A program made the position numbers and the translations under genes. From the NCBI GenBank assembly GCA_028688325.1, contig JAQTYI010000002.1, positions 161,284 to 225,283 on the forward strand: 64,000 nucleotides of DNA. Reading direction: 5' to 3'. This document shows positions 11,119-63,214 of this stretch, one piece after another. Numbering within the stretch: the stretch's first letter is position 1; the number at the start of each line of letters is the position of its first letter. The notes beneath the pieces are model-generated. The model did no database searches. It was not told the origin of the DNA and worked only from the letters and a program-made list of their open reading frames with translations. This stretch comes from Candidatus Portnoybacteria bacterium (lineage in GTDB: Bacteria; Patescibacteriota; Minisyncoccia; Portnoybacterales; GWB1-42-6).

Positions 11119-13188
11119 TTATTTTATCTGTTCCCAATACCGCCTAACTTCCTCACCCATTTTACCATCAATCTTTTGCGCTTGTGAAATGATTTCCTGC
11201 GCTTTGGCCTGTTGCCCCGATAAAGAATAGCCGGCCGCCAAGACCAGATAGGCGTCTTTTTTATTCGGCCTCAGCTCTTTAGCTCGGTTGCCCAAGTCAA
11301 TGGCCATGCTCATCCGGCCACGGTCTTGGGTCGAAAAATAAAGATCCAACCAGGCCAGCGCAAGATAATTCCCGGCTTGGTCGGGCGAGCGCTCAATCCC
11401 TTTTGCCAGCGCCGCGGCGGCGATATTATAAAAGTCCTCATTTTGCGCCAAAGCCGGGTTTTGATTGATTTTATCAATATAGTCCAAAGAGGCCTGATAT
11501 GCAATCTCGGCGGAACCGAATGCGCCCAGATCAAGCGCATCTTTCAGCAGAGGCGCCTCAAGGGCGGCATTTTCCGCGGGCAATGACAATATCTGGTTGG
11601 CCCGGTAGGCGGCCAGGAGAGGTTTGAAATTAAAAGAGTAAACGGCCGTTAGCAAATAGCCGACAACCAATAGCAAAATAATTTTTTTAAAAACACTCCA
11701 CTCGCCGCCGCGAGAAATCTCCCGCCGGCAAGGAAATATCACGCAGTCGGACTGCGTGATATTGACGATAAATGCCAGAACGAAAAACAGCATTAGATAA
11801 GAAACAAAGGAATCAAAAATAAAAAAATTCTGGACCAGATACGCGGCCAGGAGAGACAAAAAAATGACAGAAAATAAAAACGCCTTTTTTTTATTTTCTG
11901 TCATCCCGGACTCGATCCGGGATCCAGGAGCATGGATTCCGGCTTTCGCCGGAATGACAACCCTAATTAATTCATAGCTTACTATAATAAAAATACCCAA
12001 ATACGCCAACAATCCCAGCCAACCCGTTGCCACGCCGTAATCAAAAATAAAATTGTGTGCGCGGTCAGTTGCGTAGGCCTCAAATTCCGCCAGGCGCGGC
12101 GATAGATATCGGCCCGTGGCCGCCTCGAAATTTTCCGGACCAAAACCCAAAATCGGCTTGGTTTGCCAGGCCCGCCAAGCGCCTTGCCAAAGAAGCAAGC
12201 GGCTTTGGGTCGTGGCATCGCTCAGGGAAAAATGGGTTAAGCGATACAGAGTTGAATTATTTTTTACCAGGTCGTTGCCGCGGAAAAGAAACAAAGAAAT
12301 AATCAAAACAAAAATAATGGCCAAAAACACCCAGCTTGTTTTTTTTGTCATCCCGAATTTATTTTGGGATTTCCTGTCACTGGATCCTGAAACAAGTTTA
12401 GGACGACAAACTTCTTGATTAAATAAAAAAATAATTATCCCCGCCGCCAGCCCCAGCCACGCGCCGCGCGTGCCGGACAATAATAAGCTTATGGTTAATA
12501 GCAAAGAACTAATAGCAAAAAACCATTTTCGCCACCCGGCCGACGCAAAAAATAAATAACCGGCTAAAAAAAGATTAAGCAAGGCATAGCCGGCAAAAAA
12601 GCCCGCGTTGCCGATAAGACCAAAGACCCGGCCATTTGCCGGCAAAAGAATACCCCAGCCCCCCAGGCGCTGAATAAGGGCTGTGAGGGCGATAAATACG
12701 GCCACTGCCACTGAAATTCCCGCTAATTTAACCCAATCTTGCTGCCCCTTAAAAACGGCGGATAACATTAAAAACCAAGCAACAAAATGCGCTAAACCCC
12801 AAACTCCGCCTCCCCGCTCCAAACTACCCCAAAAACTATTGTAAAAATCTAAGCCAAAAATGGCAGAGAGAAGGTTGATGGCGAAAAAAACCAATACCGC
12901 GCCCGCAACGCTGGTAAACCAACTTGTGTAGCGGGCAGGCCTGGATTCCGGCTCTCCGCTCACGCTTCGGCCGAAATGACAAAATGTTTTGGGATATTTT
13001 AGCGCCAGATAAAGATAGAGCGCCGCGGCGATCTCCACCAAAATCCTGAACGCGAAAACTTTTGGCGCGGTATAAGGAAAAATAAAAGAAGCGCTGGCAA
13101 AAAGCGGCGCGGCCAGGCAAGCAGCCAGTAAAATTTTTATCAACCCGAAAATTTTATTATCTGTCTTAGAAAAATCTGAAATTTTCAA
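11119..13188 (-). CDS. O-antigen ligase family (Wzy_C/PglL-like) membrane protein with C-terminal TPR domain; paralog of 8739-11057 carrying three in-frame palindromic-element insertions
   Basis: 689 aa; SGTRGAWLGLAAG, GFGPENF, DRAHNFIFDYGVATGWLG motifs; TPR-like tail. Three extra peptide segments relative to the paralog coincide with palindromic-element copies at 11899-11960, 12346-12392 and 12938-12983. Confidence 0.75.
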   Translation of the reverse strand: MKISDFSKTDNKIFGLIKILLAACLAAPLFASASFIFPYTAPKVFAFRILVEIAAALYLYLALKYPKTFCHFGRSVSGEPESRPARYTSWFTSVAGAVLVFFAINLLSAIFGLDFYNSFWGSLERGGGVWGLAHFVAWFLMLSAVFKGQQDWVKLAGISVAVAVFIALTALIQRLGGWGILLPANGRVFGLIGNAGFFAGYALLNLFLAGYLFFASAGWRKWFFAISSLLLTISLLLSGTRGAWLGLAAGIIIFLFNQEVCRPKLVSGSSDRKSQNKFGMTKKTSWVFLAIIFVLIISLFLFRGNDLVKNNSTLYRLTHFSLSDATTQSRLLLWQGAWRAWQTKPILGFGPENFEAATGRYLSPRLAEFEAYATDRAHNFIFDYGVATGWLGLLAYLGIFIIVSYELIRVVIPAKAGIHAPGSRIESGMTENKKKAFLFSVIFLSLLAAYLVQNFFIFDSFVSYLMLFFVLAFIVNITQSDCVIFPCRREISRGGEWSVFKKIILLLVVGYLLTAVYSFNFKPLLAAYRANQILSLPAENAALEAPLLKDALDLGAFGSAEIAYQASLDYIDKINQNPALAQNEDFYNIAAAALAKGIERSPDQAGNYLALAWLDLYFSTQDRGRMSMAIDLGNRAKELRPNKKDAYLVLAAGYSLSGQQAKAQEIISQAQKIDGKMGEEVRRYWEQIK
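11899..11960. mobile_element. Miniature palindromic element (TGTCATCCCGG...CCGGAATGACAA family) inserted in-frame in a CDS
   Basis: tgtcatcccggactcgatccgggatccaggagcatggattccggctttcgccggaatgacaa; translated in the host ORF as VIPAKAGIHAPGSRIESGMTE; absent from the paralog. Confidence 0.7.
12346..12392. mobile_element. Degenerate copy of the TGTCATCCCG element, in-frame in the CDS
   Basis: ttgtcatcccgaatttattttgggatttcctgtcactggatcctga; host translation ...SGSSDRKSQNKFGMTKKT... Confidence 0.5.
12938..12983. mobile_element. Partial copy (right half) of the palindromic element, in-frame in the CDS
   Basis: ctggattccggctctccgctcacgcttcggccgaaatgacaaaa; host translation CHFGRSVSGEPESRP. Confidence 0.5.
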
Positions 13189-13297
13189 TTTTCAATGATC
13201 AATTATCAATGAATTTTCAATGATTAAATTTTCAATTGATAATTTGAAAATTGGTGATTGATTGAAAATTGTAAATTGATAATTGAAAATTACTTTA
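13189..13297. repeat. AT-rich ~110-bp imperfect palindrome built of ttttcaat / caattatcaat words, centred on caattg
   Basis: aattttcaatgatcaattatcaatgaattttcaatgattaaattttcaattgataatttgaaaattggtgattgattgaaaattgtaaattgataattgaaaatt; left and right arms are reverse complements with a few mismatches. Confidence 0.7.
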
Positions 13298-13990
13298 TTA
13301 CTGCTTCGCTTCCAACTCCGCCAAGTCCGCTTTGGCGGCCGCGTTATCGGGCAATAGACGCACCAACTCCTTGTACCACTGGATAGCTTTATTCGTTTGG
13401 TTCGTATCCCGGAAATAACCGGCCAGCGGACCGATCAGATTGGCATTATCGGGAAATTTTTGCAAGGCCTCCAGCATCGTGGTTTCATACATCGCTTCTT
13501 GCCCGGGCAAACGATAGCGGTAGATATCCGCCATCATTAAATAAAAATTAATATCGTTCGGTTCATTGGCAATAGCTATCTTTATCATTTCCAGCCCTTT
13601 TTGCGGCTGGTTCAAAAAATTAGCGTAGAGATCCGCCAAATTGACGAACGGCGGCGAACTTTTAGGCCGAAGCTGCGCCGCATATTGCCAAACATCCCGC
13701 GCGCCTTCATAATCGCCCACACCTTTTTTCAATATCCCCAAAAAAAGCCAACCGGTAAAATCCTCCTGATCGGCCCGCAAGCGGACCAAAGCTTTATTAA
13801 AATTTTCCTGATAGATTCGCGCTTCTCCAGCGGAGAGATTTTTATCTTTTATTTCAAAAATTAATAATTTTTCCGGAGTCAAAACAGCTTCTTTTTTAAA
13901 AATATATCCTTGTTGATAGGCGAAAAAAACGCCGGCAGATAAAACTAATGCGGTCATGACGCCACAAATAATATAATATTTTTTAGACAT
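13298..13990 (-). CDS. Membrane-anchored TPR-repeat protein
   Basis: ORF-track frame 13298-14125; the first 45 codons overlap a palindromic-element copy, so the likely start is the internal Met (MSKKYYIICGVMTALVLSAGVFFAY...) at 13990. One N-terminal TM helix, then TPR-like repeats. Confidence 0.55.
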   Translation of the reverse strand: MSKKYYIICGVMTALVLSAGVFFAYQQGYIFKKEAVLTPEKLLIFEIKDKNLSAGEARIYQENFNKALVRLRADQEDFTGWLFLGILKKGVGDYEGARDVWQYAAQLRPKSSPPFVNLADLYANFLNQPQKGLEMIKIAIANEPNDINFYLMMADIYRYRLPGQEAMYETTMLEALQKFPDNANLIGPLAGYFRDTNQTNKAIQWYKELVRLLPDNAAAKADLAELEAKQ

Positions 13991-14009
13991 AATAAAAATT
14001 ATGCCATAC

Positions 14010-14072
14010 CGGATTAAATCCGGCATCCAGGCCCTAAATTCTGGATCCCGCGGCAAGCCCGGGATGACAAAA
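14010..14072. mobile_element. Palindromic element copy (TGTCATCCCGGGCTTGCC... family), reverse orientation
   Basis: gccggattaaatccggcatccaggccctaaattctggatcccgcggcaagcccgggatgacaaaaa. Confidence 0.6.
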
Positions 14073-14209: not shown

Positions 14210-17200
14210 TTATTTGCTCAAGGTTTGAGCCGTCAGGTTGGAAGAAGGCAAACCTGAAACCAGGTAGCCGTTCGTCCAATCAGTTATAGACGAACCAACC
14301 GGCGTCGTATCATGGCTGGCGCTTGAAACATCAGACCAGATGAAGTCGTCGCTGGCGTCCAACTCAGCATTGTCAAAGGTCACCATACCAGCGCTCATAG
14401 ATGTCGGAGCTGCGGCATCACCCATCAAGTAGGTGGTAACCGAAGCGCCCGAACCGGCACCGGCAATAGTTCCTCGCAACGCAAAGGTGCGAGAAGTGCC
14501 GGCGGAAACGGTTCTGGTAGTGGTCGCTGTGCCCCAAGTCGCGGCCGCAGCATAGGTATAGATGTCAATGACACCGCCCATGTCCGCGTAGAACTGAGTG
14601 TTCGTGGTCGTCGCGTTTAGGGTGACTTGAGCCGACTCTGTTATATCCACCAAGGTAATATCCTTAATGGACAAATGTGCGCCGAGAACCGATTGGCTGG
14701 TAGTCGCGATCGTGAAGGTGAACTTGACCAAGTCAATGTCGCCCTTGGCATCAGCGGACACTTTGAATCTATACAAATCCATAGTGCCGTTAGTCAAAGT
14801 GTTGGTGTCCAACGCGACCGTGGAAACGGTCGGGACTGACTTGTAGATGTAAGCCGAGGTCTGCGCCGTGGTCGAGCTGTAGTTAGCAATTGACGCACCC
14901 GATGACTGGCCAGTACCCATGTTATATGTGGTGCTGGTTGAGCCATAGTAGTCAATCGCAATCTGATGGCCCGCATCCGCCACGGTGTTCGTGGTGAGGA
15001 TAGGCGCGATATCGGCCTTAATGGTAACGATCTTGTCAACATTCGGTGCAAGGACCAACGCCGGCGACAGAGTAAAGGTGGTTGACGCATTGTTGGTCAA
15101 GCCAACCGCATCGCCCGTGCCTAGCGTACCGCTAGCCAATAATGTCGCTCCGTCGTAGATATAAACTTTAGACAAATCGTTCGCTGAAGAGCTGGCATTT
15201 GTCAAAGCCAACATGACTTTAGTCACATTTATCTGTTCGGCGGTGGCCTTAAACTTCAACACGGTCATGGTATTGCCCGTGGTGTTACCCGCGATCAACT
15301 TGCCAGTCGGGGTTGAAGAATCCAGAACCACGCTGTATTGGCCGCCAGCCGCGATGGTCATCGCTTGGCCCGCCTGCGCCACGGTCACACCAGTGGCCGT
15401 AATGGTCAAAGTGGTGGAAACGCCGGTCGCTGTAATGGTCGGAGAGGCCTTCAAGCCCCAAGCATGGGTGCTGGTTGAGCCGGTCGTCGCGTTGCCCGCG
15501 ATATTGCCTTTCAGAGCGAGGGTCTTGGAAGTTCCCTTCGGAATTATCACGCCGGCGCTGTCCAAGGTAATAGTCGTCTGATTAGCCGCGTCGGCTGTGC
15601 CAGCCAAAGTGGTCACATTGCTACCGGTGTTTAGAGCGGTCGTGCCATCCCACAATTGCAAAGTGGAGATGTCGGTCGCTACGCCAGCCGCGCCGATGGT
15701 GTCTTGAACTTCAACCACAGTCACTTTGACATCTTCGCCGGAGGCGGTGGCGTCAAAGAGTAAATTGGCAAAAGTGTAGCCAACAATGCCGCGGATAACT
15801 TCTTGGGCCACCGGGGTGCCGGAAACCGAAACCACTAACGAGCCGCCCTTGACAGTCATGGTGTTGCCAGTAACTTGGGTGGCCGGAGTGGCGGTAATGG
15901 AATTGCCGGTCGTGCCGCCGGTGATGCTGGTAATCTTGTCACCCGGGGTATTGAAGCCCACCGCGATGGTGCCATCGTTGGTCAGCGTGGTCGCTAAATT
16001 ACCCTTGACAAGAACCTGGGTCGTGCCAACCGGGAAAGTAACAGTGCCGGTAAAGGTGGCTTTTGACTCGCCCGCGCTGGCATAAGCTGCATCAACCGGA
16101 CCAGCTAAAATAGTACCGTCGGCTTTAGTCAGGGTCATGTTGGTAATATTGCCAACACCCAAAGAAGAAGTGGCGATTTTCAAGATCATGCTCGCCACAT
16201 TGATTGGTTCGCCCGCGACAACAAAGTCGAAGGAGCCCAACAAAACGCCGGTCGCGCCTTTGGTAATGTTGGCGGCCGGAGCGCCGGTTGAACTCTTGTC
16301 AATGCGCAGAGAGCCGGTGCCGACGGTGATGTCATTGGCATTGAAGACCGGGTTGCCAGCCGTATTCCACGGGTATGTGGTGTTGGCATCCGGAGTCAAA
16401 TAATAACCATAGACATTACCCTTGATAACCACATCTGTCGTGCGATAAATATCGAACGAGATGGTTCTGGCTGAACCGCTCAAGATATTACCTTTGACGG
16501 TAAATTCTTTGGACAAACCCTTGGCAATAGTAATGCCAGCGGTGCCAAAAGAAGCGGTGAAATACTTACCGTCGGAAGAAACCGTTGTGGCATAGTTGGT
16601 CGTGCCATCAGAAACCACAACGCTCCCTAAGTCCGAAGACGCGGCCGAGCCGGACTGGTTAAACCGGATAGAGGTTATAGTCAGGTCTTCAATTGAACCA
16701 GCCGTGAATTTGACGCCGGAGAAATTGAAGTCGTTCGTGCCGACTTCCTTATTAGTGGAAGTGGCTGCATTCAACGAACCGGAAGCGACAGTGTAGCTGC
16801 CGATGCTCAAGGTTTCGTTGATGGTTTGGCTGTTGCCGGTTATCGGCAACACGCCGCTAACAGTAGCGGTGGTTTCCACCGAGACCAAAGCCAAATTAGC
16901 GGTCTGTCCGGCCGCGCTCTGCGAGGTGGACGGCATGTTGGCCGCTAAAGTGTAATACTTGGTAGTATTGGCCGGAATGGTAAAGGACTCCCGAACGGTG
17001 ATCTGGTGATCAGCATTCAAGGTTTGATTTAAGCCGATCTGAAGATTGGTCGTGTTATCAATCAAAGCGACTGAAGACAAGGCCGTATCAGCCGCTAAAC
17101 CGGTCCGCTGCGCTTTGATAGCCGTGACCGTAACATCGGTCGCGCCGGCCGTTAAAGCAAATTTTGTGAACGGAACGCGGGCCGCCTTCAAAGGCGCAAT

Positions 17201-17779
17201 ACCGGCCGCCGGAGTGTCAGAAGCCAAAGAAACCGTTACGGTTCCGGCCACACCCGGGGTGACAGTGGTTGAAGGAGAAGCAGAAGTTCCGCCAGTGATA
17301 TCAGCACCTGGGGTGTAGACATCGCGGTCAGTGGTATTTATCTGGTAAACAGAATCCCAATCATAACCGGCGGCGGTGAACGCTTCGGCGGTCATGTTGA
17401 CCCACTGTTTCGAACCGTTATCGCTGTTTGGAACCGGAACCAGGGAATAAACTTTAGGATCGCCGACGGCTCTCACTAAAGTAGAAGTCGTGAACTGGTC
17501 CATTTGCGCTTGAGTCACGGTCTTTATTCTGCTCCAGCTCAAGTGTTGATAACTGTTGAAAACGGACGGGCTCAAGACCAATCTTTTGAAGTTCTTGGCA
17601 CCCATGTATTTCACAATATAAACATCAAGAGTATTGGCAACTCTGATGGTGTCGCCTTCAAGAATGCCGGCAACAGCAGCGGAAGCAGCCAAAGGAGCCA
17701 AGGCCGCAACGCCAGACAACCACAAGATAGTGGTCACGCTGGTTGAAACGGAAATGACTTTTTTGAATGTTTTACTCAT
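14210..17779 (-). CDS. Large secreted Thr/Ser/Gly/Ala-rich repeat protein (candidate S-layer/surface adhesin-like protein)
   Basis: 1189 aa; N-terminal signal peptide (MSKTFKKVISVSTSVTTILWLSGVAALAPLAASAA); remainder low-complexity beta-rich repeated modules dominated by T, S, G, A, V; no enzymatic motifs. Confidence 0.7.
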   Translation of the reverse strand: MSKTFKKVISVSTSVTTILWLSGVAALAPLAASAAVAGILEGDTIRVANTLDVYIVKYMGAKNFKRLVLSPSVFNSYQHLSWSRIKTVTQAQMDQFTTSTLVRAVGDPKVYSLVPVPNSDNGSKQWVNMTAEAFTAAGYDWDSVYQINTTDRDVYTPGADITGGTSASPSTTVTPGVAGTVTVSLASDTPAAGIAPLKAARVPFTKFALTAGATDVTVTAIKAQRTGLAADTALSSVALIDNTTNLQIGLNQTLNADHQITVRESFTIPANTTKYYTLAANMPSTSQSAAGQTANLALVSVETTATVSGVLPITGNSQTINETLSIGSYTVASGSLNAATSTNKEVGTNDFNFSGVKFTAGSIEDLTITSIRFNQSGSAASSDLGSVVVSDGTTNYATTVSSDGKYFTASFGTAGITIAKGLSKEFTVKGNILSGSARTISFDIYRTTDVVIKGNVYGYYLTPDANTTYPWNTAGNPVFNANDITVGTGSLRIDKSSTGAPAANITKGATGVLLGSFDFVVAGEPINVASMILKIATSSLGVGNITNMTLTKADGTILAGPVDAAYASAGESKATFTGTVTFPVGTTQVLVKGNLATTLTNDGTIAVGFNTPGDKITSITGGTTGNSITATPATQVTGNTMTVKGGSLVVSVSGTPVAQEVIRGIVGYTFANLLFDATASGEDVKVTVVEVQDTIGAAGVATDISTLQLWDGTTALNTGSNVTTLAGTADAANQTTITLDSAGVIIPKGTSKTLALKGNIAGNATTGSTSTHAWGLKASPTITATGVSTTLTITATGVTVAQAGQAMTIAAGGQYSVVLDSSTPTGKLIAGNTTGNTMTVLKFKATAEQINVTKVMLALTNASSSANDLSKVYIYDGATLLASGTLGTGDAVGLTNNASTTFTLSPALVLAPNVDKIVTIKADIAPILTTNTVADAGHQIAIDYYGSTSTTYNMGTGQSSGASIANYSSTTAQTSAYIYKSVPTVSTVALDTNTLTNGTMDLYRFKVSADAKGDIDLVKFTFTIATTSQSVLGAHLSIKDITLVDITESAQVTLNATTTNTQFYADMGGVIDIYTYAAAATWGTATTTRTVSAGTSRTFALRGTIAGAGSGASVTTYLMGDAAAPTSMSAGMVTFDNAELDASDDFIWSDVSSASHDTTPVGSSITDWTNGYLVSGLPSSNLTAQTLSK

Positions 17780-18590
17780 TTTTAATTTCGTATTTGATCC
17801 GCCAATTAAATTTCTTTAATTGACAAGATCTATTTTCAATTCGTTCGGTTATTTTTTTCCTTGCGAGAATTCCGATGGCTTGCGCCTTGGAATTGCACCC
17901 CCGCGCTTTTTCTCGTATCACCGAATAAGCGATATGATTTTTCTGCTCCGCGTTAATATCCGCGTAGCAGATCCGCGTTTTAAGGCGCGGCATAAAGCGA
18001 GGTGTCCTCGAGGTTTAATCTGCCACCCCCCTTTTTATTCATTCCGCTACGTCCCGTAAACAAGACATTCGCGCAATGGGGGCCAAGTAATAAATAACCT
18101 CTGAATTGATTTTTTAATGATTTTTTGTTTTTTTTGTTTCAAAAAGCCACTCGGAAACGAAACTCAAAACATCTGAGGAATTTCAACCTCAAATGCTTGA
18201 CGACCTGCAGTTCCCTTCCGTGCCCCAAACCGGGCCTAATCCCGTTAGAAATTATTGAATAATCTTCTTAGCTCTTTAGCTTGCGCTTATTTATACGGAT
18301 AAGCCAGGTGCCGCCAAGCGATTACGCGATAATTTCTAACGGGACAAATCCCTTGTTTAAGACAAAAAATGGTCTTTTTTTCTATATAACGATTATATAA
18401 AATAACTACCCTTATAGTCAACCCCATTGGAAATTCATCCAAATATAGCTTTTATTCCGAATATAAGCCGGCGGCGGCTTCGCTTTTTCCGCTTATAATG
18501 CCGCAATTTTGGCTGAATTTCCAATGGAGCAGATCAGAACGACCTGCGGATAAACAATTCTTTTTTTTCTCTAAATAAGCCGATTTTTGT
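17780..18590 (-). promoter_or_regulatory. Long non-coding leader/promoter region upstream of the large surface-protein gene, with internal inverted and direct repeats
   Basis: 810 bp without ORFs >60 aa; a 17-bp inverted repeat cccgttagaaattattg / cgataatttctaacggg (18240-18350) encloses ~70 nt; three copies of TCCGCGT in 17925-17975; candidate structured 5' UTR. Confidence 0.4.
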
Positions 18591-19640: not shown

Positions 19641-19848
19641 TACTAAATAAGACGAAAAAACAGCAAAAGTATTACAGCTATCTTAGAATTCCCGTGTTTA
19701 TACCATAAAATCAACCCGACCGAGATGTAAAATGCAAATTTCTAATTGTTCTAATTTCTAATTGACCTAATTAATGGCCAATGTCTAATGTTTAAATTTT
19801 AGAAATTGGGATTTGATTAGAAATTAGGTTAATTAGGTAATTAGAAAT
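19641..19848. repeat. AT-rich palindromic word-repeat element (copy 2 of the ttctaatt/aattagaa family)
   Basis: aaatttctaattgttctaatttctaattgacctaattaatggccaatgtctaatgtttaaattttagaaattgggatttgattagaaattaggttaattaggtaattagaaattt; about 85% identical to 1900-2009. Confidence 0.7.
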
Positions 19849-20379: not shown

Positions 20380-20573
20380 GTTTCCAAAATTTGCTGCAAA
20401 TTAGCTTAAATAAAGTTTTCAATTTTCAATGCTCAATTTTTCACCCTTCGGGTGACCACCCGTAGGGTGGCAATCAATTATCAAATTTTCATTGAACATT
20501 GGTAATTGAAAATTCATTGATAATTGGAAATTGATAATTTTTAATCTATATAGTTATGCAAAAATAGTGGTTG
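20380..20573. repeat. AT-rich word-repeat element containing two short GC hairpins
   Basis: ttttcaattttcaatgctcaatttttcacccttcgggtgaccacccgtagggtggcaatcaattatcaaattttcattgaacattggtaattgaaaattcattgataattggaaattgataattt; hairpins cacccttcgggtg and ccacccgtagggtgg; may also act as the GalU terminator. Confidence 0.6.
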
Positions 20574-46018: not shown

Positions 46019-46060
46019 TTATAAATACTACAGTATACTAGTATACTGTAGTATTTATAA
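46019..46060. promoter_or_regulatory. 42-bp perfect AT-rich palindrome upstream of tRNA-Gly / downstream of ftsB
   Basis: ttataaatactacagtatactagtatactgtagtatttataa (centre actagt). Confidence 0.5.
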
Positions 46061-46075
46061 GCCCTGCGTGCATCT

Positions 46076-46486: not shown

Positions 46487-46695
46487 TTTGCTAAAATGAA
46501 TATATGGATTTCACGCGCCGCTCAAAAGGAGCCAAACTTTTCTTAATTATTGCCACGGCTATCGTGGTCTTCAGCATGCTCGCCTTCACCCTGGCGCCGC
46601 TGTTTTAAATAATAACAGAGCTGAACGATTTTTCAAATCCGCCATTGGGCGGTTTTTTTATTTCTCGCGCATACGAAAAATAACAATTAAATTTA

Positions 46696-46793
46696 TTGTC
46701 ATCCCGAACGCAGTGAGGGATCTCTCGCGTATGCGAGATTGTTGCGCGGGTCGCTTCGCTCCCGCGAGATCCCTCGTTTCACTCAGGATGACA
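46696..46793. mobile_element. Second palindromic element family (TTGTCATCC(C/T)GAACG.AGTGAGGGATC...GATCCCTCGTTTCACTCAGGATGACA), full copy
   Basis: ttgtcatcccgaacgcagtgagggatctctcgcgtatgcgagattgttgcgcgggtcgcttcgctcccgcgagatccctcgtttcactcaggatgacatt; perfect long terminal inverted repeats. Confidence 0.7.
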
Positions 46794-46808
46794 TTATTTT
46801 CAATAATG

Positions 46809-48605: not shown

Positions 48606-48614
48606 TTTATTTCT

Positions 48615-48710
48615 TTACCCTGAGCTTGTCGAAGGGCTGATATTTTCCATTTTATCTTTACCCCGAGCGATTTATCCCGATAAGAATTGAGGGAAGTCGA
48701 GGGGCATAAA
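48615..48710. repeat. Third repeat family (CCCTGAGC..GTCGAAGGGC / GGGATAAATCGCTCGGG modules), intergenic copy
   Basis: ctttaccctgagcttgtcgaagggctg...cccgagcgatttatcccgataagaattgagggaagtcgagggg; reverse-complement match to 50790-50870 inside murJ; related module at 45340-45410. Confidence 0.55.
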
Positions 48711-48767
48711 CAAAAAATCGCCTTTTAGACGACTTTATTCTGGCACAGATCGGCTCTTTTTTCAACC

Positions 48768-49385
48768 TTAAATCAGGCCATCGAATTTATCATAAAAATC
48801 CCTGGCCGCTTGGACGATTTTTTCATCGCCCCGCATTTTCGCGACGAAAAGATTAACCTGGTCGATAAAATCAAAATCAAATCCGCCATCCACTAGAACC
48901 AGCGCGCGGGTCTTGTCGCTGGGCCTTTCAATAAAATATTTTTGCAAAAATCCGTGCCAGCGAACAATGTCTTTTTCGGGCAGGCCGAATTTCTTTTCTC
49001 CTTCCAAAACGCCGTCAAAAAATCCCGCCAATTCAGTCCAGCCACTGAACCGGTCATACAGCAATTCGTCCTGTAAAAATTTCAAAGAAACGCTCAAAAC
49101 ATGATGCGGCTCGATATAGAAAGGATGGTCTTTAAGCAAGCGATAAAAATTTCCCCACCTTTCATCCAGCAAAGAATGGAAATGCGCACCCGCGAAAAAA
49201 GAGTCCTCTTTGGCTATTTCTTCGATGCTCTTGCCGTCCTGATGGGTTTTCTCTCTGTCCAAGTTATCGTAATACCGGATATCGGGAAAACTTGTGCCGA
49301 CAAAAAATTCCTTCCGGTCTTTGCCGGAAAAATATTTGTCAAAAACTTTATTGGCCAAAACAATATGAGTGATGGGAGCGGCCAT
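48768..49385 (-). CDS. Hypothetical protein (possible metal-dependent hydrolase)
   Basis: 205 aa; no signal peptide; His-rich segments (ITHIVLANKVF; FFAGAHFHSLLDE) loosely resemble the N-terminal domain of the 1217-aa protein at 59476-63129; no confident family. Confidence 0.35.
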   Translation of the reverse strand: MAAPITHIVLANKVFDKYFSGKDRKEFFVGTSFPDIRYYDNLDREKTHQDGKSIEEIAKEDSFFAGAHFHSLLDERWGNFYRLLKDHPFYIEPHHVLSVSLKFLQDELLYDRFSGWTELAGFFDGVLEGEKKFGLPEKDIVRWHGFLQKYFIERPSDKTRALVLVDGGFDFDFIDQVNLFVAKMRGDEKIVQAARDFYDKFDGLI

Positions 49386-49388
49386 AAT

Positions 49389-51128
49389 TTAATCCTGGAT
49401 TATTTCTTTATCGGACGCCACTTGCTTGAACGGCAAGCGATTCTTCATGGCTTGCCAGAAAATCTGCATCTCGGGCGAGCGCAACAAGAGTCCCGCCAGA
49501 AAATAAATTATCAAGCCGGCTATCCCGGCAATGAACCCCTGCGCCAACAGCCCCAAAAGGGTGCGGGTATCAACAAATTTATCCATGAACAACAAAACCC
49601 GCCAGGCAACGACTCCCGTCAAAATAGACGCCGACAATATTTTTACTCCGCTGGCAAAAATTTCACCAAACAGCAAGCTGCTTACGCCGCTTTTTCCCGA
49701 ATCAGCGGGAAAGGCCCGGCCGGTTTTTCGCTCCAAAGACAGCCACAACAATACCATATTCAAAATGCCACCGAGCGCATAACCCAACGCTAACCCCGCC
49801 ACGCCCAACGAGAAAGAAAAATACCACGCCAAACCGATGCGCACGAAAGAGCTTAAAAATCCCAGCCAGAAAGGCGTCTTGGTGTCTTCCAGCGCAAAAA
49901 ATCCCCGCACCAGCAGCAAATTCAGCGCTTCGGCAAAAAGCCCGACGACTAAAAACTCCAGAGTGTTGATGGCCGAAATCGTGTTGGCCCAACTGAATCG
50001 GCCCGTACCTAAAATAACGCGGACAATTTGCGCGCGCAAAACGATGAATAACGCGCTGGCCGGAATTATCAAAAAAAGTATCTGCCGAAAAGTGCTGGAA
50101 AGTGTTTTGGCAAAAGCATTCTTATCCCCCGCCTTGGCGTCTCCGGCTAGCGCCGGAAAAGCCGCCATAGCGAGCGATCCAGCCAAGATTCCCAGGGGAA
50201 AGCTGTAAATATTGTAAGACAGGTCGAATATCGCCAAACTTCCGGCCGCCAGAGTTGAAGCCAAAATCGTTATCGCCAAAAAATTTATCTGCGCCACCGC
50301 CAAAGTCAAAATGCGCGGCACGGTCAATTTAGCCATACGCCTGGCCGCGCTGTCGGCCCAGTTGAATATCGGCCGGTATTTATAGCCCAAAGACAAAATT
50401 GACGGGATTTGAATCGCCATGTGCAAAAACGCTCCCAAAACAACGCCCCAAGCCAGGCCGTAGATGCCAAAACGCGGCACCAAAAATAGAATGCCGAAAA
50501 TTATGCCCAGATTATAAAATATGGGCGTCAAAGAAAATATCAGAAATTTTTTCACGCCCTGCAAGATTCCACCCCAAATGGAACTGGCGCCCAGCAATAT
50601 GGGGCTTAAAAACATTACTCGCGTCAGCGCAACCGTCAAATTCATTTTATCCGTGCCAAATCCCGGCGTGATAAGTTTTACAAAAAACGGCGCGAAGATA
50701 AAAAACACGGCGGCCACGACCATGAGGCCCAGGCCCAGAATATTCAAAACATTATTCACAAAATCCCAAACTTCCCGGCGGTTTTTAGACCCCTCGACTT
50801 CCCTCGCCTCAGCTCGGGATAAATCGCTCGGGGAATAATTATTATTGCCTAAGCTTGTCGAAGGCCTGTTCCACAACCCGATGAACACCGGAATAAACCC
50901 CGCCGAAAGCGCGCCCAGAACCAGCAAGTTATAAACCGTGTCGGGAATGCGGAAAGCCGCGTAATAAACATCCAGGGTATCGCCGGCGCCAAATTGCCCG
51001 GCCAGGAGCCGATCGCGCAACAAACCCAAAAAACGGCTGGCCAGAGAAGCCAGCGCCAAAACCAAAGCCGCGCTCGTTATGCTGCGCGATTGGCCGTTGA
51101 AAATTTTATCGGTCAAGAATTTAAACAT
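49389..51128 (-). CDS. murJ: Lipid II flippase MurJ (MviN family), carrying an in-frame repeat-element insertion
   Basis: 579 aa; MurJ N-terminus (SAALVLALASLASRFLGLLRDRLLAGQFGAGDTLDVYYAAFRIPD), ~14 TM. Segment ...RPSTSLGNNNYSPSDLSRAEAREVEGSKN... (50790-50870) is the translated third-family repeat. Confidence 0.85.
   Translation of the reverse strand: MFKFLTDKIFNGQSRSITSAALVLALASLASRFLGLLRDRLLAGQFGAGDTLDVYYAAFRIPDTVYNLLVLGALSAGFIPVFIGLWNRPSTSLGNNNYSPSDLSRAEAREVEGSKNRREVWDFVNNVLNILGLGLMVVAAVFFIFAPFFVKLITPGFGTDKMNLTVALTRVMFLSPILLGASSIWGGILQGVKKFLIFSLTPIFYNLGIIFGILFLVPRFGIYGLAWGVVLGAFLHMAIQIPSILSLGYKYRPIFNWADSAARRMAKLTVPRILTLAVAQINFLAITILASTLAAGSLAIFDLSYNIYSFPLGILAGSLAMAAFPALAGDAKAGDKNAFAKTLSSTFRQILFLIIPASALFIVLRAQIVRVILGTGRFSWANTISAINTLEFLVVGLFAEALNLLLVRGFFALEDTKTPFWLGFLSSFVRIGLAWYFSFSLGVAGLALGYALGGILNMVLLWLSLERKTGRAFPADSGKSGVSSLLFGEIFASGVKILSASILTGVVAWRVLLFMDKFVDTRTLLGLLAQGFIAGIAGLIIYFLAGLLLRSPEMQIFWQAMKNRLPFKQVASDKEIIQD
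50790..50870. mobile_element. Third-family repeat copy inserted in-frame in murJ
   Basis: cccctcgacttccctcgcctcagctcgggataaatcgctcggggaataattattattgcctaagcttgtcgaaggcctg; reverse complement of the 48615-48710 module. Confidence 0.6.
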
Positions 51129-51147
51129 CCTAATATTTTAACTCAAC

Positions 51148-51211
51148 TTGTCATCCTGAACGAAGTGAGGGATCTTTTATTTTTAGATTCTTCGCTTCGC
51201 TCAGAATGACA
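51148..51211. mobile_element. Second-family palindromic element, short copy
   Basis: ttgtcatcctgaacgaagtgagggatcttttatttttagattcttcgcttcgctcagaatgacaaa. Confidence 0.65.
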
Positions 51212-51275
51212 AACTATGTTCACTTACTCACACCTCAACCCTCTCATTTTATCACCAAATCCGCAAAAGATAAAA

Positions 51276-51306
51276 AAACGGGGCTTCGCATCGCGAAGCC
51301 CCAAAA
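51276..51306 (-). terminator. GC-rich rho-independent terminator downstream of the 51338-52057 gene
   Basis: Minus strand reads ggggcttcgcgatgcgaagcccc + ttttttt (10-bp stem). Confidence 0.65.
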
Positions 51307-51337
51307 GGGTACAAGAAAAAAGATACAAGAGTAAAAC

Positions 51338-52057
51338 TCAGGAAACCGCCTGGCGAGAACGCAAATTGTCGCTCGCATCGCCGGGACCGTTCCAACCGAC
51401 CCCGAACCCGGCGCCGCCCCAGTCGGCGCTCGGCACATGGCCATCGCCATAGCGCGAACCCGTGCACAGCGTCCAGTTGATGATATCCAGATGCTTGCCG
51501 GTTTCCTTGAAGAACTTGGGCTCATAGACAAGCCGCTCTTCCAGGGTGATGCCGGGGATGTTTTTTTGCTTAAGGTCGTTGGCGGAGAGATTTTTCAGCT
51601 CCTCGTCGGCTTCAACACGGTCGCGAACCCAAACGGCATAGGCGCCGTTTTTGGCCGAGCGGTCGGAGGTGACGATTTTATCCAGATCTTCGTCTGTATA
51701 TTTCCAACTCGGAAACAGCTGCGCGCACTTGTCGTAGAGACGCTGAGCGGTCATACCTGGGATCAGGATGAGCAGGCGGTCAAAGCCGGCTCGCTTGGCC
51801 GGAATGACCAAATCGGTGAAATCCGCCTCTATGCCGAAGACATCGCGGTAGAATGCTTGCCAGTCGGCGAGCAGGTCGAGGTACGGATTTGCGGCCGAAA
51901 ATATTTTCCGCACTTGCGCCGTTAGTTTTCCTTTGTTGCCGACCCAGCTTTCAGCCGTTTCAAAAGTCATGCCAGTTGGCACCCCCTGCACCAGAGCCGA
52001 AATGATATCCTTCATCTGGCCCGGTGTCATCGTTCGGACAGTCCGATTATTTTTCAT
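51338..52057 (-). CDS. Hypothetical protein encoded in a compositionally atypical (GC-rich) segment; probably horizontally acquired
   Basis: 239 aa; strong RBS (AAGGGAGG) before the ATG; GC visibly higher than neighbours (all six frames open: 51244-51531, 51216-51452 etc. are shadow ORFs); no recognisable domain. Confidence 0.5.
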   Translation of the reverse strand: MKNNRTVRTMTPGQMKDIISALVQGVPTGMTFETAESWVGNKGKLTAQVRKIFSAANPYLDLLADWQAFYRDVFGIEADFTDLVIPAKRAGFDRLLILIPGMTAQRLYDKCAQLFPSWKYTDEDLDKIVTSDRSAKNGAYAVWVRDRVEADEELKNLSANDLKQKNIPGITLEERLVYEPKFFKETGKHLDIINWTLCTGSRYGDGHVPSADWGGAGFGVGWNGPGDASDNLRSRQAVS

Positions 52058-59475: not shown

Positions 59476-62400
59476 TTATTCCACTGTCACATTTTCTTGC
59501 GTTACTGTCGCGCCGTCTTTAATGTCCAAAATTGGCCCATTATAATATAAATAGCTAGTCGTGTCGCGGCTGTATCCGCCATACTTGAATTTAATAAATT
59601 TCAAAGTTGCCTGGCTGCCGCCGGCAAATATAATATTTCTCCATTCGCCCCTTGCAAGATTCGGCTCGCTGACCAGACCGTCGTTGTTGGTGTCACCGCC
59701 TGAAGAATCATCCTTAAAAGATGTAAAAATAATTAAGGTGGAAGACGACTGGCCGTCAGCTACCAAATTTCCGTCAATTTTCAAGGATGGATAAAGCGGG
59801 CAGGCCGCCTTAATCACTGCACCCGGCTCAATGGTCAAAGTGGAACTGGCGGTTACTGTTGGATATTGTGTCCCGATATCAGACCGCAGAATGTAGACAA
59901 TTTCTCGCTGCCAAGTCGTATTTTTTGATAAAACCGTGCGCTCGCTGACATTAACGCCGTTGAAAGAGTTGTTAATCAAATTGTTGCCGGAAAAAACCGG
60001 ATAGGCGCTTTCCAGCCAAACAGCGAATTGAAAACCGGAAATATCATTTGACTCGATCGCCGGCCGGTTTTGATTTTCAATCCTTATCGCCGTGCCGGTA
60101 TTTGCCGAGTTTCTGAAGGTATTGTTTTTAACGATTGGTGCAGACGAGCCAGTAAGATATAAAGCGGTGTCGTTATCCAAAAATTGGGAATCGGACAAAG
60201 TCAAATCGGAGCCGGTTAGCTCCAGGCCGCGGCCTTGAATATTGCGGAAAATGCAGTTATTAATATCTACTTTGGCGCCGTTAACCGCAACCGCCGGAAA
60301 ATTATTGTTGAACGGCGATCGGTACCCGCCGTATTCAAAAGTTACAAAAGACAGCTCGGAATTCAAGGAATCAGGTGCAAAATACAATCCCGTTCCCCAG
60401 TCGCCCGCTTGCGGCGCGACGCTGTTTGAGGTGAATAAAATCGGATTACCGCTCGTGCCTACGGCTTTTACGGCCCCCTTAACATATAAGGAATAAAGGG
60501 TCGCGCTTAATGGCTTTATTGTCGCGCCGGGCTCAATGGTTAAAGTGGCGCCCGCCGACACCATGGGAGATGCCTCATTGGAAGAATATAAAACATAAGG
60601 AGAACCCGCCTTGCCCCAAACGGTATTTTTGGAAATAATCGTATTGTCTCTTACCATGCTGCCGGCGGAAACATTTAGAGCATCGTTTTGGGCATTCGGA
60701 GTGCCGCCGGCAGCCGAAGTGCCCCAGGCCAAAATAAAATCGGAATAAACGCTATTATAATTTATCCTTTCCAAGGAATTGCCATTATCATTGGTGCTCC
60801 TCCAGCTATTTGAATAATTAACTCTGTCAACTATGCTGCCGGCGGCGTTTTTTAGAATTAAATCGTTGCTTAAATTAGTCAAAGATAATGAAGCGGCGCC
60901 ATTTAGAGTTAAGCGAAGATGAGCTTGATCGGACGATGGGATTGCATAATAAGCACCGTCGTAAATTGATGGCGTGGAAGTGCTTTCTGTTCTGTCCGCC
61001 AATAACGCAAAACCGCCAGAAGCAATGACCGTTGAAGAACCGTTATGAATCGTATCGGCGATGACAACATGTTCGCGGCCGTCGGAAACAAATTTCCAGT
61101 TAGCCAAATCTATCGCTATCGGGGAACGATTGTACAGCTCGACATATTCGTAATAGCTGTCCGACCCGGGATTGGGGTCATACATTATCTCGTTAAAAAT
61201 TATCGGTTTTATCGAAACCGGCGCCTGAATTTCTTGCCAAACGCTCGCTTGGCCGGCTGAGTCAACCGCCCGGGCGCGGAAATAATAAACGATATTGTCG
61301 AGATTTGACTGAAAAGATTTTGAAGTGGTGATTGTGGCCATGGCCCAGCTCTGCCAGGCACCCTGTTCGCCTATTTTATATTGCACATCATAATAGCCGA
61401 TATCCGTTGATGAACTGCTCCAGTTTACAGTAAAATCTATATTCATCAGATCATAGCCGGAAAGATCAATGGTTGCTTCCGGCGCAAAATCAATTCTCCA
61501 AGAATATTCGGTTGAAGTGGCGTTGCGGTTGCCGGCCGCGTCCGCGGCTCCAACCTTAAAAGCATGGCTGCCTTCGGCCAAATTGATATATTCTTGCGGC
61601 GAGGAACAATCGGTTGAGCTCGCGTTATCCAACTGGCAGGAAAAAGTTGAATCGCTTTCCGAGGAATTGAATTCAAAAATCGCCGTTGTTGTAGATGCTA
61701 TGCTTTCCGGCTTAACCGTAATCATTGTTTCCGGCGCCGTAGTATCCGGCGTTGAAGTTGCGGTTGAAGTGGCTGTCGGCGACGAAGATAGTGTTGACGA
61801 AAAATTGGACCCGCCGCCGGAAACAGCAACGGAAGGACTCGGATCCGGCATTTGCGCCCGGCTTGGAACCATTTCTTCGATGATCGCAGACGGAATTTCG
61901 CTGTCCTGAGGCGTTGTTTCTTCAATTATCCCCCCTTCTGCTTTTTCCTGCGCCGCAACAGCGCTTGGCGGCAATTGCGCCGCAGCTTTTTCTTCGGCCA
62001 CAATCGTGTTTAACGGCAAAGACGCGGCCGGCGGCAACGATTCCGGCAATACCGGCAATACTGAATTTTTCGGCGCCTCGCCATCCCCGCCAACAGGCGG
62101 GGCCGCGCTCGGCGCCGCATCCACTATAACCCCAGCATACAGCGGCCCGACCTTTGTCAATGACTGATTGGCTTTGTCTTTTAATTTTTGCCACCAGCTT
62201 TTATTATCATATTCCCGCTTGGTCTTTTCCGCTTCATCAAAAAATAATTTCACCGCCCCCGCGCCATAAGATACGGCTTTGGGAGCAAGAAGAGAAAAAT
62301 AGTCGGAGTGGACAGATATTGTATTTGATAAATCCATTAAGTAATGGGTATCACCAAATTTAGATTTTTTATATATTACTAAACAAATTCTATTATCTCC

Positions 62401-63129
62401 AATCTCCTTCTCTATGCATTCATAATTTACACCGTCTTTTATCTTTTCGACTTTTTTTAAACCCAATAAGTAATTTTCCCTAATTGTGTCTCTACTCAAA
62501 AAATTATTACTTGAATAACTCGCCAAATCATCAAAAGCCATATTAATATCACTAATCACTACAGGTACCACATTAAAATTTATGGACGAGCTAATTTTGT
62601 CAACCGCCCATTTTTCATAAGGATCTCCCTCCGGATGCGCGTCCAATCGCGTATGTGCCGGCACAGTTGCATCTTCCAATAAATGTACCACATGTCCAAG
62701 CGCGAAAAATGCTTCTTGGTTATTGCCTTTTACATAGCTATCAATCGCCTTCTGCCAGGTCTGGTTTCCCCCGCTGAGTATAAAAGACGATAACGCTTGG
62801 TAATTAGGGCTTTTCGCCCAATTCTTGGAGTTCATCATACTGCCAAGGCCCATATCGCTTTCCGGATTATAAAAATGATTCAGCCAGCGCGGCGCTAAAT
62901 CTTCTTTTATGCTCCCTTGTTTTAACCATTCTATTTCTTCATTGCTCAATTTGCGGTCAAAATTGGCATTATAAATTTTAGCTACATTATCCGTTAAAGA
63001 CGGGTGCGTAATATCATCATTATACGAAAAAGCTCGGTTGCAAAACGCAACCGAGCCGGCAAATATTGTCGTTAAAATTAATAGAGCTAAAACTTCCTTT
63101 TTATTCGAGACCATCACCCTTGATGTCAT
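59476..63129 (-). CDS. Giant secreted multidomain protein: N-terminal zinc-dependent phospholipase C-like domain, Pro-rich linker, FN3/Ig-like region, lamin-tail domain (LTD) and C-terminal right-handed beta-helix repeats
   Basis: 1217 aa; signal peptide; HVVHLLEDATVPAHTR (PLC-like Zn-site); IIFNEIMYDPNPGSDSYYEYVELYN (LTD signature); repeated NNxF/N-rich parallel beta-helix turns (NNTFRNSANTGTAIRIENQ, SGNNLINNSFNGVNV). Confidence 0.7.
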   Translation of the reverse strand: MTSRVMVSNKKEVLALLILTTIFAGSVAFCNRAFSYNDDITHPSLTDNVAKIYNANFDRKLSNEEIEWLKQGSIKEDLAPRWLNHFYNPESDMGLGSMMNSKNWAKSPNYQALSSFILSGGNQTWQKAIDSYVKGNNQEAFFALGHVVHLLEDATVPAHTRLDAHPEGDPYEKWAVDKISSSINFNVVPVVISDINMAFDDLASYSSNNFLSRDTIRENYLLGLKKVEKIKDGVNYECIEKEIGDNRICLVIYKKSKFGDTHYLMDLSNTISVHSDYFSLLAPKAVSYGAGAVKLFFDEAEKTKREYDNKSWWQKLKDKANQSLTKVGPLYAGVIVDAAPSAAPPVGGDGEAPKNSVLPVLPESLPPAASLPLNTIVAEEKAAAQLPPSAVAAQEKAEGGIIEETTPQDSEIPSAIIEEMVPSRAQMPDPSPSVAVSGGGSNFSSTLSSSPTATSTATSTPDTTAPETMITVKPESIASTTTAIFEFNSSESDSTFSCQLDNASSTDCSSPQEYINLAEGSHAFKVGAADAAGNRNATSTEYSWRIDFAPEATIDLSGYDLMNIDFTVNWSSSSTDIGYYDVQYKIGEQGAWQSWAMATITTSKSFQSNLDNIVYYFRARAVDSAGQASVWQEIQAPVSIKPIIFNEIMYDPNPGSDSYYEYVELYNRSPIAIDLANWKFVSDGREHVVIADTIHNGSSTVIASGGFALLADRTESTSTPSIYDGAYYAIPSSDQAHLRLTLNGAASLSLTNLSNDLILKNAAGSIVDRVNYSNSWRSTNDNGNSLERINYNSVYSDFILAWGTSAAGGTPNAQNDALNVSAGSMVRDNTIISKNTVWGKAGSPYVLYSSNEASPMVSAGATLTIEPGATIKPLSATLYSLYVKGAVKAVGTSGNPILFTSNSVAPQAGDWGTGLYFAPDSLNSELSFVTFEYGGYRSPFNNNFPAVAVNGAKVDINNCIFRNIQGRGLELTGSDLTLSDSQFLDNDTALYLTGSSAPIVKNNTFRNSANTGTAIRIENQNRPAIESNDISGFQFAVWLESAYPVFSGNNLINNSFNGVNVSERTVLSKNTTWQREIVYILRSDIGTQYPTVTASSTLTIEPGAVIKAACPLYPSLKIDGNLVADGQSSSTLIIFTSFKDDSSGGDTNNDGLVSEPNLARGEWRNIIFAGGSQATLKFIKFKYGGYSRDTTSYLYYNGPILDIKDGATVTQENVTVE

Positions 63130-63214
63130 CCCGGGCTTGACCCGGGATCCATGCTCTGGATTCCCGCTTTCGCTCGCCTCGCTGGAGCTTCGGCGAAGCG
63201 GGCGGGAATGACAA
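63124..63214. mobile_element. Palindromic element, longest copy (first family)
   Basis: tgtcatcccgggcttgacccgggatccatgctctggattcccgctttcgctcgcctcgctggagcttcggcgaagcgggcgggaatgacaaa. Confidence 0.7.

Follow-up and report, generated by a model that had tools for sequence, protein, structure and literature searches.

The 64-kb stretch of Candidatus Portnoybacteria contig JAQTYI010000002.1 analyzed here (positions 161,284 to 225,283; hereafter the window) carries almost all of its genes on the minus strand, and the homologues of its proteins are found in Candidatus Portnoybacteria and other Parcubacteria. Dispersed between and within these genes is a family of short hairpin repeats that begin with an unpaired TGTC tag, which an earlier interpretation made from the letters alone (the sequence-only reading) had described as a miniature inverted-repeat transposable element (MITE). 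Reading each site individually yielded an inventory of 16 hairpin units (U1 to U16) at ten sites, six of which hold inverted doublets and four of which hold single units (Table 1). Copies are present at all ten sites that the sequence-only reading had listed, and its description of a dispersed, non-coding repeat with full, half, or degenerate copies in both orientations is confirmed. Its coordinates needed only small corrections; specifically, the entry 12346-12392 proved to be a complete doublet ending at 12408, and the entry 14010-14072 lies at 14002-14069.

Every intergenic copy is located between co-oriented genes. Four of the intergenic sites lie 16-42 nt past a stop codon (U9, U10, U11/U12, and U15/U16), and four lie 0-30 nt ahead of a start codon.

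Table 1. Hairpin units and associated features of the window. CM, covariance model; SRM, match to the published pattern of the Ssn-related motif; HH, tags outward; ORF, open reading frame; subfamily 2, variant units described in the text.
Feature	Position	Strand	Site	Sequence and state	CM score (bits)	Location and other attributes
Wzy_C (O-antigen-ligase-like) membrane-protein ORF	11119-13188	-				689 aa; U1-U5 (three sites) read through in frame
U1	11899-11926	+	doublet 11899-11959, left half (HH)	TGTC-ATCCCGGA-CTCGA-TCCGGGAT-CCA	44.7	in Wzy_C ORF; SRM; DNA fold -8.4 kcal/mol
U2	11933-11959	-	doublet 11899-11959, right half	TGTC-ATTCCGGC-GAAA-GCCGGAAT-CCA	43.6	SRM
U3	12346-12373	+	doublet 12346-12408, left half	AT-shifted, degenerate, G-T pairs	19.8	second intragenic doublet
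U4	12381-12408	-	doublet 12346-12408, right half	tag TGTCGT, degenerate	21.9	second intragenic doublet; module TCCTGAAACAAGTT(C/T)AGGACGACAA recurs in composite elements of relative L065
U5	12942-12981	-	singleton	enlarged loop	19.0	in frame in Wzy_C ORF (peptide FCHFGRSVSGEPESRP)
U6	14002-14029	+	doublet 14002-14069, left half	tag TGCC	26.0	intergenic; 11 nt upstream of the likely ATG of a TPR gene
U7	14042-14069	-	doublet 14002-14069, right half		32.4	intergenic; 141 nt downstream of the stop codon of ORF 14210-17779
U8	38991-39018	+	singleton	exact 28-mer TGTCATCCCGGGCTTGACCCGGGATCCA	44.6	SRM; between ABC-F stop codon and cupin gene start
U9	42108-42135	-	singleton	degenerate, TGTCATTCCCGCC TCTTC GGCGGGATAT	8.5 (weak, E ~5)	between ftsX stop codon and tRNA-Gln
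U10	43307-43334	-	singleton	exact 28-mer	44.6	SRM; 16 nt past ftsE stop codon, inside strain-variable spacer
U11	46697-46724	+	doublet 46697-46793, left half	subfamily 2; ATCCC..GGGAT stem base, G-A mismatches inside	17.8	doublet 16 nt after lepA stop codon
U12	46766-46793	-	doublet 46697-46793, right half	subfamily 2	13.3
U13	51149-51176	+	doublet 51149-51211, left half	subfamily 2	14.6	doublet 21 nt upstream of murJ start codon; near-identical doublet in Patescibacteria locus L049 2014-2072
U14	51184-51211	-	doublet 51149-51211, right half	subfamily 2; contains GCGAAGC	18.9
U15	63124-63151	+	doublet 63124-63213, left half	28-mer with ATCCAT end	44.6	SRM; ATG called as start of ORF 59476-63129 overlaps its ATGACA end
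U16	63157-63213	-	doublet 63124-63213, right half	NTS-like TGTCATTCCCGC..GAAAGCGGGAATCCA; ~30-nt GC-rich hairpin repeat in loop		fold -14.7 kcal/mol
Strain-variable ftsE-ftsX spacer	43098-43348	-				U10 + GC hairpin + 152-nt copy of region upstream of ftsE
AT-rich palindromic blocks	1900-2015, 8280-8346, 8672-8731, 11035-11121, 13180-13300, 19725-19826, 20413-20560
AT-rich palindromic blocks in relatives	L005 6383-6506; L065 2540-2640

The working unit is approximately 28 nt long and folds into a hairpin on single-stranded DNA. From its 5' end it comprises the TGTC tag, left unpaired, a stem of 8 bp that opens with an A-T and then a T-A pair, a loop of 4-5 nt, and a CCA tail, as in TGTC-ATCCCGGG-CTTGA-CCCGGGAT-CCA. 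With DNA energy parameters, canonical units fold into this tag, stem, loop, and tail at -8 to -9 kcal/mol. The tag, which is unpaired in these folds, reads TGTC in 14 of the 16 units (U4 has TGTCGT and U6 has TGCC). Perfect 8-bp stems beginning AT...AT are found in U1, U2, U8, U10, and U15, while those of U3, U6, and U7 include one mismatch or G-T pairs. The loop measures 4-5 nt in nine units (GAAA, CTTGA, CTCGA, TTAAA, and others) and falls outside that range in U5 and U16, where it is enlarged or invaded, and in the four units of subfamily 2. A CCA follows the stem in U1, U2, U4-U8, U10, U15, and U16, its place being taken by CTC, CTT, or CTA in subfamily 2. In each doublet, two units are inverted with their tags outward (HH), usually with different stems, so that the window holds six tag-outward dimers and four singletons; the singletons and degenerate copies look like remnants of HH pairs.

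Two elements of the sequence-only reading do not survive this inspection. The internal core CCCGGGCTTGACCCGGGATCC, said to be shared by all copies, is found in only four units (those starting at 38991, 43307, and 63124 and, in altered form, 14042). The copies assigned to a second family do exist, but they are not a separate family: they have the same tag, the same A-T/T-A stem base, and the same ATC end, and are treated here as subfamily 2. Its units retain an ATCC...GGAT stem base together with the tag and ATC end; their interior is mismatched and G-A-rich, and stem pairing is limited to ATCCC/GGGAT.

The repeats are far more frequent than expected by chance. The string TGTCATCCYG has 9 matches in the window, whereas shuffling that preserves dinucleotides predicts 0.09 and produced as many in none of 100 trials. 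A repeat finder groups the copies into direct and inverted families (D4, D8, D10, I5, I7, I8, I10, and I11). A CM trained on units that all come from outside the window, and run with filters off, identifies 12 units at E<0.01 and three weaker ones, with no copy in addition to those listed by the sequence-only reading. The sixteenth unit (63157-63213), which has a 30-nt insert in its loop, was spotted by eye. The published SRM pattern, HGTCWYN(0-2)YYVSBRHN(0-5)WNVSBRGN(0-2)RNCYNB, matches the window 6 times against 0.14 expected (maximum of 2 in 100 shuffles), and five of the six matches are U1, U2, U8, U10, and U15. The remaining match, at 17238-17264, is inside a Thr/Gly-rich coding stretch and was taken as chance. 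At gathering thresholds, Rfam finds three tRNAs over the window and nothing else.

The window repeats are TGTC-tagged repetitive extragenic palindromic (REP) hairpins of the superfamily that includes the CGTC REPs, the NTS, and the SRM. CGTC REPs, described as families CGTC-1 to CGTC-4 (Di Nocera, De Gregorio, Rocco 2013, PMC3733652), have an unpaired CGTC tag, with TGTC as a frequent variant and CCTC also allowed, 8-9-bp stems that nearly always start with complementary A-T, 4-5-nt loops, and 3-nt tails close to CCA. They form mostly HH dimers (tags outside), often heterodimers, lie between co-oriented or convergent ORFs with some copies intragenic, and have no dedicated transposase (PMC3733652). 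The tag, the A-T stem start, the CCA tail, the HH dimers, and the intragenic copies are common to both sets of repeats, and the window ORFs checked likewise include no associated transposase. Loop length agrees in 9 of the 16 window units, the mismatched interior of subfamily 2 is outside the published stem and loop lengths, and Patescibacteria are absent from the published host phyla—i.e. Proteobacteria, Chlorobi, Bacteroidetes, Spirochaetes, and Thermotogae (PMC3733652).

Individual units also resemble the NTS. The NTS is a 28-nt extension of the Neisseria dRS3 repeat (CGTCATTCCCGCGMAVGCGGGAATCYRG) that has been generalized to the degenerate SRM (PMC11893778, 2025). U2 (TGTCATTCCGGCGAAAGCCGGAATCCA) has the same layout and the same GAAA loop and differs in the first tag base (T for C) and in one stem pair, while U16 matches in its stem halves and GAAA loop and differs in the first tag base and in its loop insert of ~30 nt. 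The partner protein, SsnA, is a 94-aa single-domain GIY-YIG nuclease that binds the hairpin on single-stranded DNA only, and on the tagged strand only, cuts just upstream of the hairpin, and in Neisseria restricts transformation by DNA that carries the repeat; strand-specific binding and cutting, restricted to single-stranded DNA, is known for Neisseria and Wolbachia homologues (PMC11893778). The same paper mentions neither Patescibacteria nor the Candidate Phyla Radiation (CPR), and our literature search found no publication linking Patescibacteria with REPs or Ssn. The two systems also differ in placement, with 2% of NTS being intragenic in N. meningitidis compared with 5 of 16 units in one ORF of the window, and in that no ssn gene is inside the window.

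The insert in the U16 loop belongs to a repeat of its own. A GC-rich hairpin (family D6; GCTCGCCTCG...CGAAGCGGGC) occurs at 28489-28524, 29493-29528, and 63168-63203, and the third of these copies sits in the U16 loop, so one repeat is nested within another.

REPINs are also doublets of hairpin units with a conserved unpaired tetranucleotide (PMC3337134, PMC3116915), and the window copies could in principle be REP doublets moved by an IS200/IS605-like tyrosine transposase, as REPINs are by RAYTs. Tagged hairpin units, inverted doublets, and non-autonomous copies that far outnumber a single-copy gene between two units are features of both systems. However, the REPIN tag is GTAG and its partner is a Y1 transposase, whereas here the tag is TGTC (or CGTC in the published families) and the repeats are associated with a GIY-YIG nuclease. 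The earlier survey of CGTC REPs came across no RAYT with such units on its flanks (PMC3733652), and there is no Y1 transposase among the window ORFs checked and none that recurs in 120 listed loci carrying the window 28-mer. We regard this explanation as extremely improbable.

Across many phyla, at least 120 genome blocks contain an exact copy of the 28-mer carried by U8. Among the matches listed, hosts include Alpha-, Beta-, Gamma-, and Deltaproteobacteria, Zixibacteria, Cloacimonadota, Ignavibacteria, Rhodothermales, Nitrospinales, and many Patescibacteria, and the same 28-mer is also present in three high-GC IMG/VR contigs. Housekeeping genes are the only gene families that recur beside the repeat in the 120 listed loci, and no transposase recurs there. 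Of 241 distinct sequences selected by tag and tail alone, 56% have five or more additional stem pairs, compared with 1.1% after interior shuffling, and the set includes at least 25 different stem sequences. The excess of pairing together with the diversity of stems indicates that structure, and not just sequence, is conserved. Changes on both sides are seen at 6 of 8 stem pairs, in an alignment that was itself selected for pairing.

A conserved hairpin located between co-oriented genes and near stop or start codons could act mainly in transcripts, as a terminator, a stabilizer of 3' ends, or a control of translation, and many REPs have been argued to be transcribed (PMC3733652). The terminator version of this proposal fails because no unit has a T tail; none was called terminator-like in the region 38000-52000, where true terminator-like hairpins lie nearby. 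Other features also run against a role in RNA: the copies point both ways and some lie within ORFs, the single-stranded tag and tail show strand-specific conservation, the 28-mer is identical across phyla while the flanking genes are unrelated, and SsnA is inactive on RNA (PMC11893778). We therefore consider it very unlikely that the hairpins work chiefly at the RNA level, and local side effects on RNA are possible.

The ends of the units also supply signals of other kinds. Specifically, the ATGACA/TTGTCA ends (63124-63131, 51149-51154, 42130-42136, and 43329-43356) provide ATG and score as -35-like hexamers, and a promoter scan returns ATGACA-16-TATAAT, with 11 of 12 matches, on the + strand at 43329-43356.

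Copies within genes were part of the sequence-only reading, and the Wzy_C ORF bears this out, its frame remaining open through three sites. By translation of the reading frame, the repeat-derived peptides are VIPAKAGIHAPGSRIESGMT, RPKLVSGSSDRKSQNKFGMT, and FCHFGRSVSGEPESRP, and in an alignment with 20 homologues the three insertion sites correspond to gaps in most sequences. Further peptides that derive from the repeats, distinct from those of the window, are found in other Wzy_C homologues, either at these loop positions or elsewhere in loops (VIPAQAGIQ...GMTKKK, VILSEAKNL, FCHSERS, and LSFRGQ), and they represent the three reading frames of TGTCATYC.... A homologue with only 57% identity (P0002) also has the third-site insertion, where it reads VIPAKAGI...GMTENKK; because it is common to such a divergent protein, some copies are old. 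A literature search for the repeat-derived peptides gave no match.

Palindromes read in frame within protein genes, commonly as dimers, are also known from the Rickettsia palindromic elements, which add ~20-30 aa at tolerated places, and two of these, RPE-4 and RPE-6, have been equated with CGTC-4 and CGTC-1, respectively (PMC3733652). The host phylum differs, and the likeness is one of description, with the in-frame status in the window taken from the reading frames.

A further palindromic repeat, CCCCGAGCGATTTATCCCGA...GAGGGAAGTCGAGGGG, is found inside murJ (50784-50833) and in an intergenic region (48661-48710). The murJ copy is read in frame (..SPSDLSRAEAREVEGS..) and corresponds to a stretch of ~30 aa that has no counterpart in solved MurJ structures (query residues 88-117 vs chain 74-80).

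Genes for small GIY-YIG proteins are found beside these repeats in other genomes, and the published ssnA gene typically lies in a repeat-gene-repeat layout (PMC11893778). Two of the genome blocks with the 28-mer carry a 94-100-aa GIY-YIG gene next to it: in one (L094) the gene is bracketed by two exact 28-mers with their tags outward, and in the other (L067) it adjoins a 28-mer. A metagenome scan with an alignment of Ssn-like proteins returned 80 loci, of which 70 had enough flanking sequence. In 35 of these 70, the GIY-YIG gene is preceded by a (+) unit and followed by a (-) unit, each no more than 120 nt away, compared with a background of 0.32 units/kb in the rest of the metagenome loci; the tags are mostly TGTC.

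CPR genomes also have the gene. One Ssn-like gene (L163) is on a contig from a JGI sample that also contains the strain of the window, and the named relatives of its protein are mostly CPR (Buchananbacteria, Taylorbacteria, Doudnabacteria, Berkelbacteria, and 'Patescibacteria group'), with one KSB1 match. In a 12-kb Taylorbacteria locus (L216/L217), three tag-outward doublets contain no gene, the same two-unit frame also encloses a frameshifted Ssn-like copy, and one of the doublets is just upstream of an intact copy. The window doublets share this tag-outward frame with the nuclease loci, and thus have the geometry of an Ssn cassette minus its gene.

The two Ssn-like genes of the Taylorbacteria locus are 1 kb apart (4726-6285) in a type-IV-secretion-like cluster (PrgI, TraC-like, and TraG-like); one is intact, and the other, frameshifted, is exactly bracketed by two units. 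The slot of the Ssn-like gene also differs in syntenic hydrogenase clusters, with the order EamA-DUF6390-ssn in L163 (2406-2690) and EamA-ssn-DUF6390 in Buchananbacteria (L212-L215, 6001-6294), a pattern that would be expected if the Ssn cassette itself moves. Two long contigs with Ssn-like genes, initially candidates for CPR, were found to be alphaproteobacterial instead.

Comparisons with close relatives reveal that the positions of the repeats change. Three contigs of a strain 99.5-99.7% identical to the window have no difference at seven of the sites; L001 and L006 have none at the repeats, and in L005 (99.6% identical) the ftsE-ftsX spacer alone differs, in its entirety, with an AT-rich palindrome in place and U10 absent. 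Further look-ups for the sites at 51149 and 63124 gave no informative comparison. In a syntenic relative (prfB-ftsE-ftsX, 80-93% amino acid identity), composite TGTC elements lie upstream of tRNA-Thr and prfB, where the window has none, and the window's copy after ftsX is absent. These differing copy sites indicate that positions are not conserved. Identical positions in relatives, which the sequence-only reading had associated with a conserved structural RNA, are thus not what we find, as they differ in this relative and, at one site, between 99.6%-identical strains. The recent activity that the same reading proposed is only weakly favored by these comparisons.

The sequence-only reading had proposed to look for target-site duplications and for a cognate transposase with matching terminal inverted repeats (TIRs). 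We find no general duplication signal: among 110 tag-outward dimers, flanking matches are near the shuffled control (6 of at least 3 bp vs 2.3 expected), and of 14 subfamily-2 dimers, again near control, 12 have no 4-bp match, the only ones with such a match being the two doublets of the window. As such, turnover of positions is present, but a transposon-type footprint is not.

These results bear directly on the view that the repeats are MITEs derived from an insertion sequence (IS), with TIRs TGTCATCC...GGATGACA, whose movement would depend on a DDE transposase acting in trans and duplicating the target site. The ends of the doublets are indeed mutually inverted and enclose no gene, and a 4-bp direct repeat (TTAT in one case, AACT in the other) borders each of the window's two subfamily-2 doublets. 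However, the supposed TIRs are the unpaired TGTC tags and stems of two self-contained units that are also found singly, so that half-elements are complete hairpin units and not truncated TIRs; the stems covary; and the gene found between such ends is that of a GIY-YIG nuclease. The sequence-only reading was correct that the window has no transposase, with none in the ORFs scanned and the remaining ORFs judged to be housekeeping by eye from their translations, and it has no other gene able to mobilize the repeats. The absence extends further, as no autonomous IS with matching TIRs and a transposase is found in the window or in ~2.5 Mb of other loci. Bacterial MITEs such as Correia elements and Nezha are similarly short, dispersed, and non-coding, with inverted ends and some copies in genes, but the window units are independent hairpin ends with no regular target-site duplications and no known parent IS. 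It is very improbable, in our view, that the window repeats are MITEs of this type.

The strain-variable spacer contains other repeats as well. A perfect 152-nt direct duplicate (43105-43256 and 44049-44200) has one copy ahead of ftsE and one ahead of ftsX; the element is imperfectly palindromic and includes a promoter-like TTGATA-18-TAAAAT, and the ftsX-side copy is absent in the 99.6%-identical strain. A composite 80% similar to this arrangement (152-nt element, GC hairpin, and REP unit) is found in another gene context at L059 308-544. AT-rich palindromic blocks of the AATTGAAAATTGATAATT and AAATCCCAATGACAA types fill many intergenic spacers, and one of them takes the place of the REP-bearing spacer in the sister strain. 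Some of these blocks contain TTGTCATTGGGATTT...AAATCCCAATGACAA and resemble an AT-rich echo of the TGTCAT hairpin units.

Taken together, we consider a joint account probable, in which the window repeats are hairpins of the superfamily, an Ssn-type nuclease is encoded elsewhere in the genome, and spread occurs without duplication. Under this account, the window doublets would be gene-less counterparts of Ssn cassettes, and their units would be recognized by a putative Ssn-type nuclease encoded outside the window in the same genome. By analogy with published work, that nuclease would bind the hairpin on single-stranded DNA and cut beside it (PMC11893778). Spread may proceed without duplication, either by way of single-stranded DNA or by recombination.

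Several observations weigh against this account. No Ssn-like gene is found in the 64-kb window by tblastn (E>8), by a Pfam scan, or by a GIY-YIG motif search of the ORFs, and the GIY-YIG proteins discussed above were called by Pfam PF01541, size, and flanking repeats, while the published Ssn class is cd10448. Subfamily 2, U3-U5, and U9 match the canonical anatomy poorly and have low CM scores. The sole strain difference is the replacement of a whole spacer and not a clean insertion, and the 4-bp direct repeats around both subfamily-2 doublets of the window are what a transposon would leave. Lastly, movement of the repeats by Ssn is a hypothesis even in the paper that describes the nuclease (PMC11893778).

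The main rival is that the repeats are fossils—i.e. members of the same superfamily whose partner nuclease has been lost or was never present, decaying as inactive relics that were inherited or acquired through recombination or DNA uptake. A window without an Ssn-like gene fits this rival, as do the degenerate U3-U5 and U9 and the degenerate tag of U6, and the third Wzy_C insertion, common to P0002, again indicates that some copies are old. There is also precedent, as ~19% of genomes with >200 motifs have no ssn gene (PMC11893778). On the other hand, three window units keep the 28-mer exactly and U15 keeps all but the last base pair context, the GC content of the unit being 64% in a genome of 46%, and one site differs between 99.6%-identical strains. 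Furthermore, Ssn-like genes are common in CPR, and one of them (L163) comes from a metagenome shared with the window's strain. We thus view the fossil explanation as rather unlikely and retain the joint account with an Ssn-type nuclease as the preferred one.

Three further observations concern other parts of the window. Near tRNA-Thr(CGT) (45481-45555), the segment at ~45400-45460 contains ACGGTTCAATTCCGACCATCGGCTCC, the 3' part of a different tRNA-Thr that is intact at the same position in L065 (~268-335), and the window piece looks like what is left of a tRNA gene that was replaced. Release factor 2 is encoded at 44246-45476 in two frames (45279-45476 and 44246-45277) with CTTTGAC at the junction, which is the usual programmed +1 frameshift site of prfB. 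Finally, the ~800 bp at 17780-18590 lack a convincing ORF, and Rfam gives no match there even when hits up to E of 1 are admitted.

A bolder version of the preferred account is that the gene-less doublets are non-autonomous elements copied in trans by Ssn, active in CPR and exchanged between phyla. We consider this doubtful. If true, it would define a class of mobile elements based on a GIY-YIG protein with single-stranded hairpin ends, in which the doublets would be to the Ssn cassette what REPINs are to RAYTs. Exchange between phyla would explain the identical 28-mer in CPR, Proteobacteria, and others, and membrane proteins of CPR would regularly gain in-frame loop insertions from the doublets.

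Both the repeat family and its partner nuclease have already been described, and the window adds scope to them and no new principle. What is new is a Patescibacteria (CPR) host for Ssn-related hairpins, a dense cluster of in-frame read-through copies in one CPR envelope gene, and the finding that the nuclease gene and empty doublets occupy one frame. Patescibacteria are ultrasmall and are thought to depend on the uptake of foreign DNA. In Neisseria, the Ssn system restricts transformation (PMC11893778). The question of how CGTC-type REPs multiply is also sharpened, with a common two-unit frame, no target duplications, and one 28-mer across phyla. For annotation, the units are a source of spurious small ORFs and false start codons, and they appear as 'insertions' in CPR proteins. 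At the protein level, the repeats are tolerated in frame in essential-looking envelope genes of small genomes, as they are in Rickettsia.

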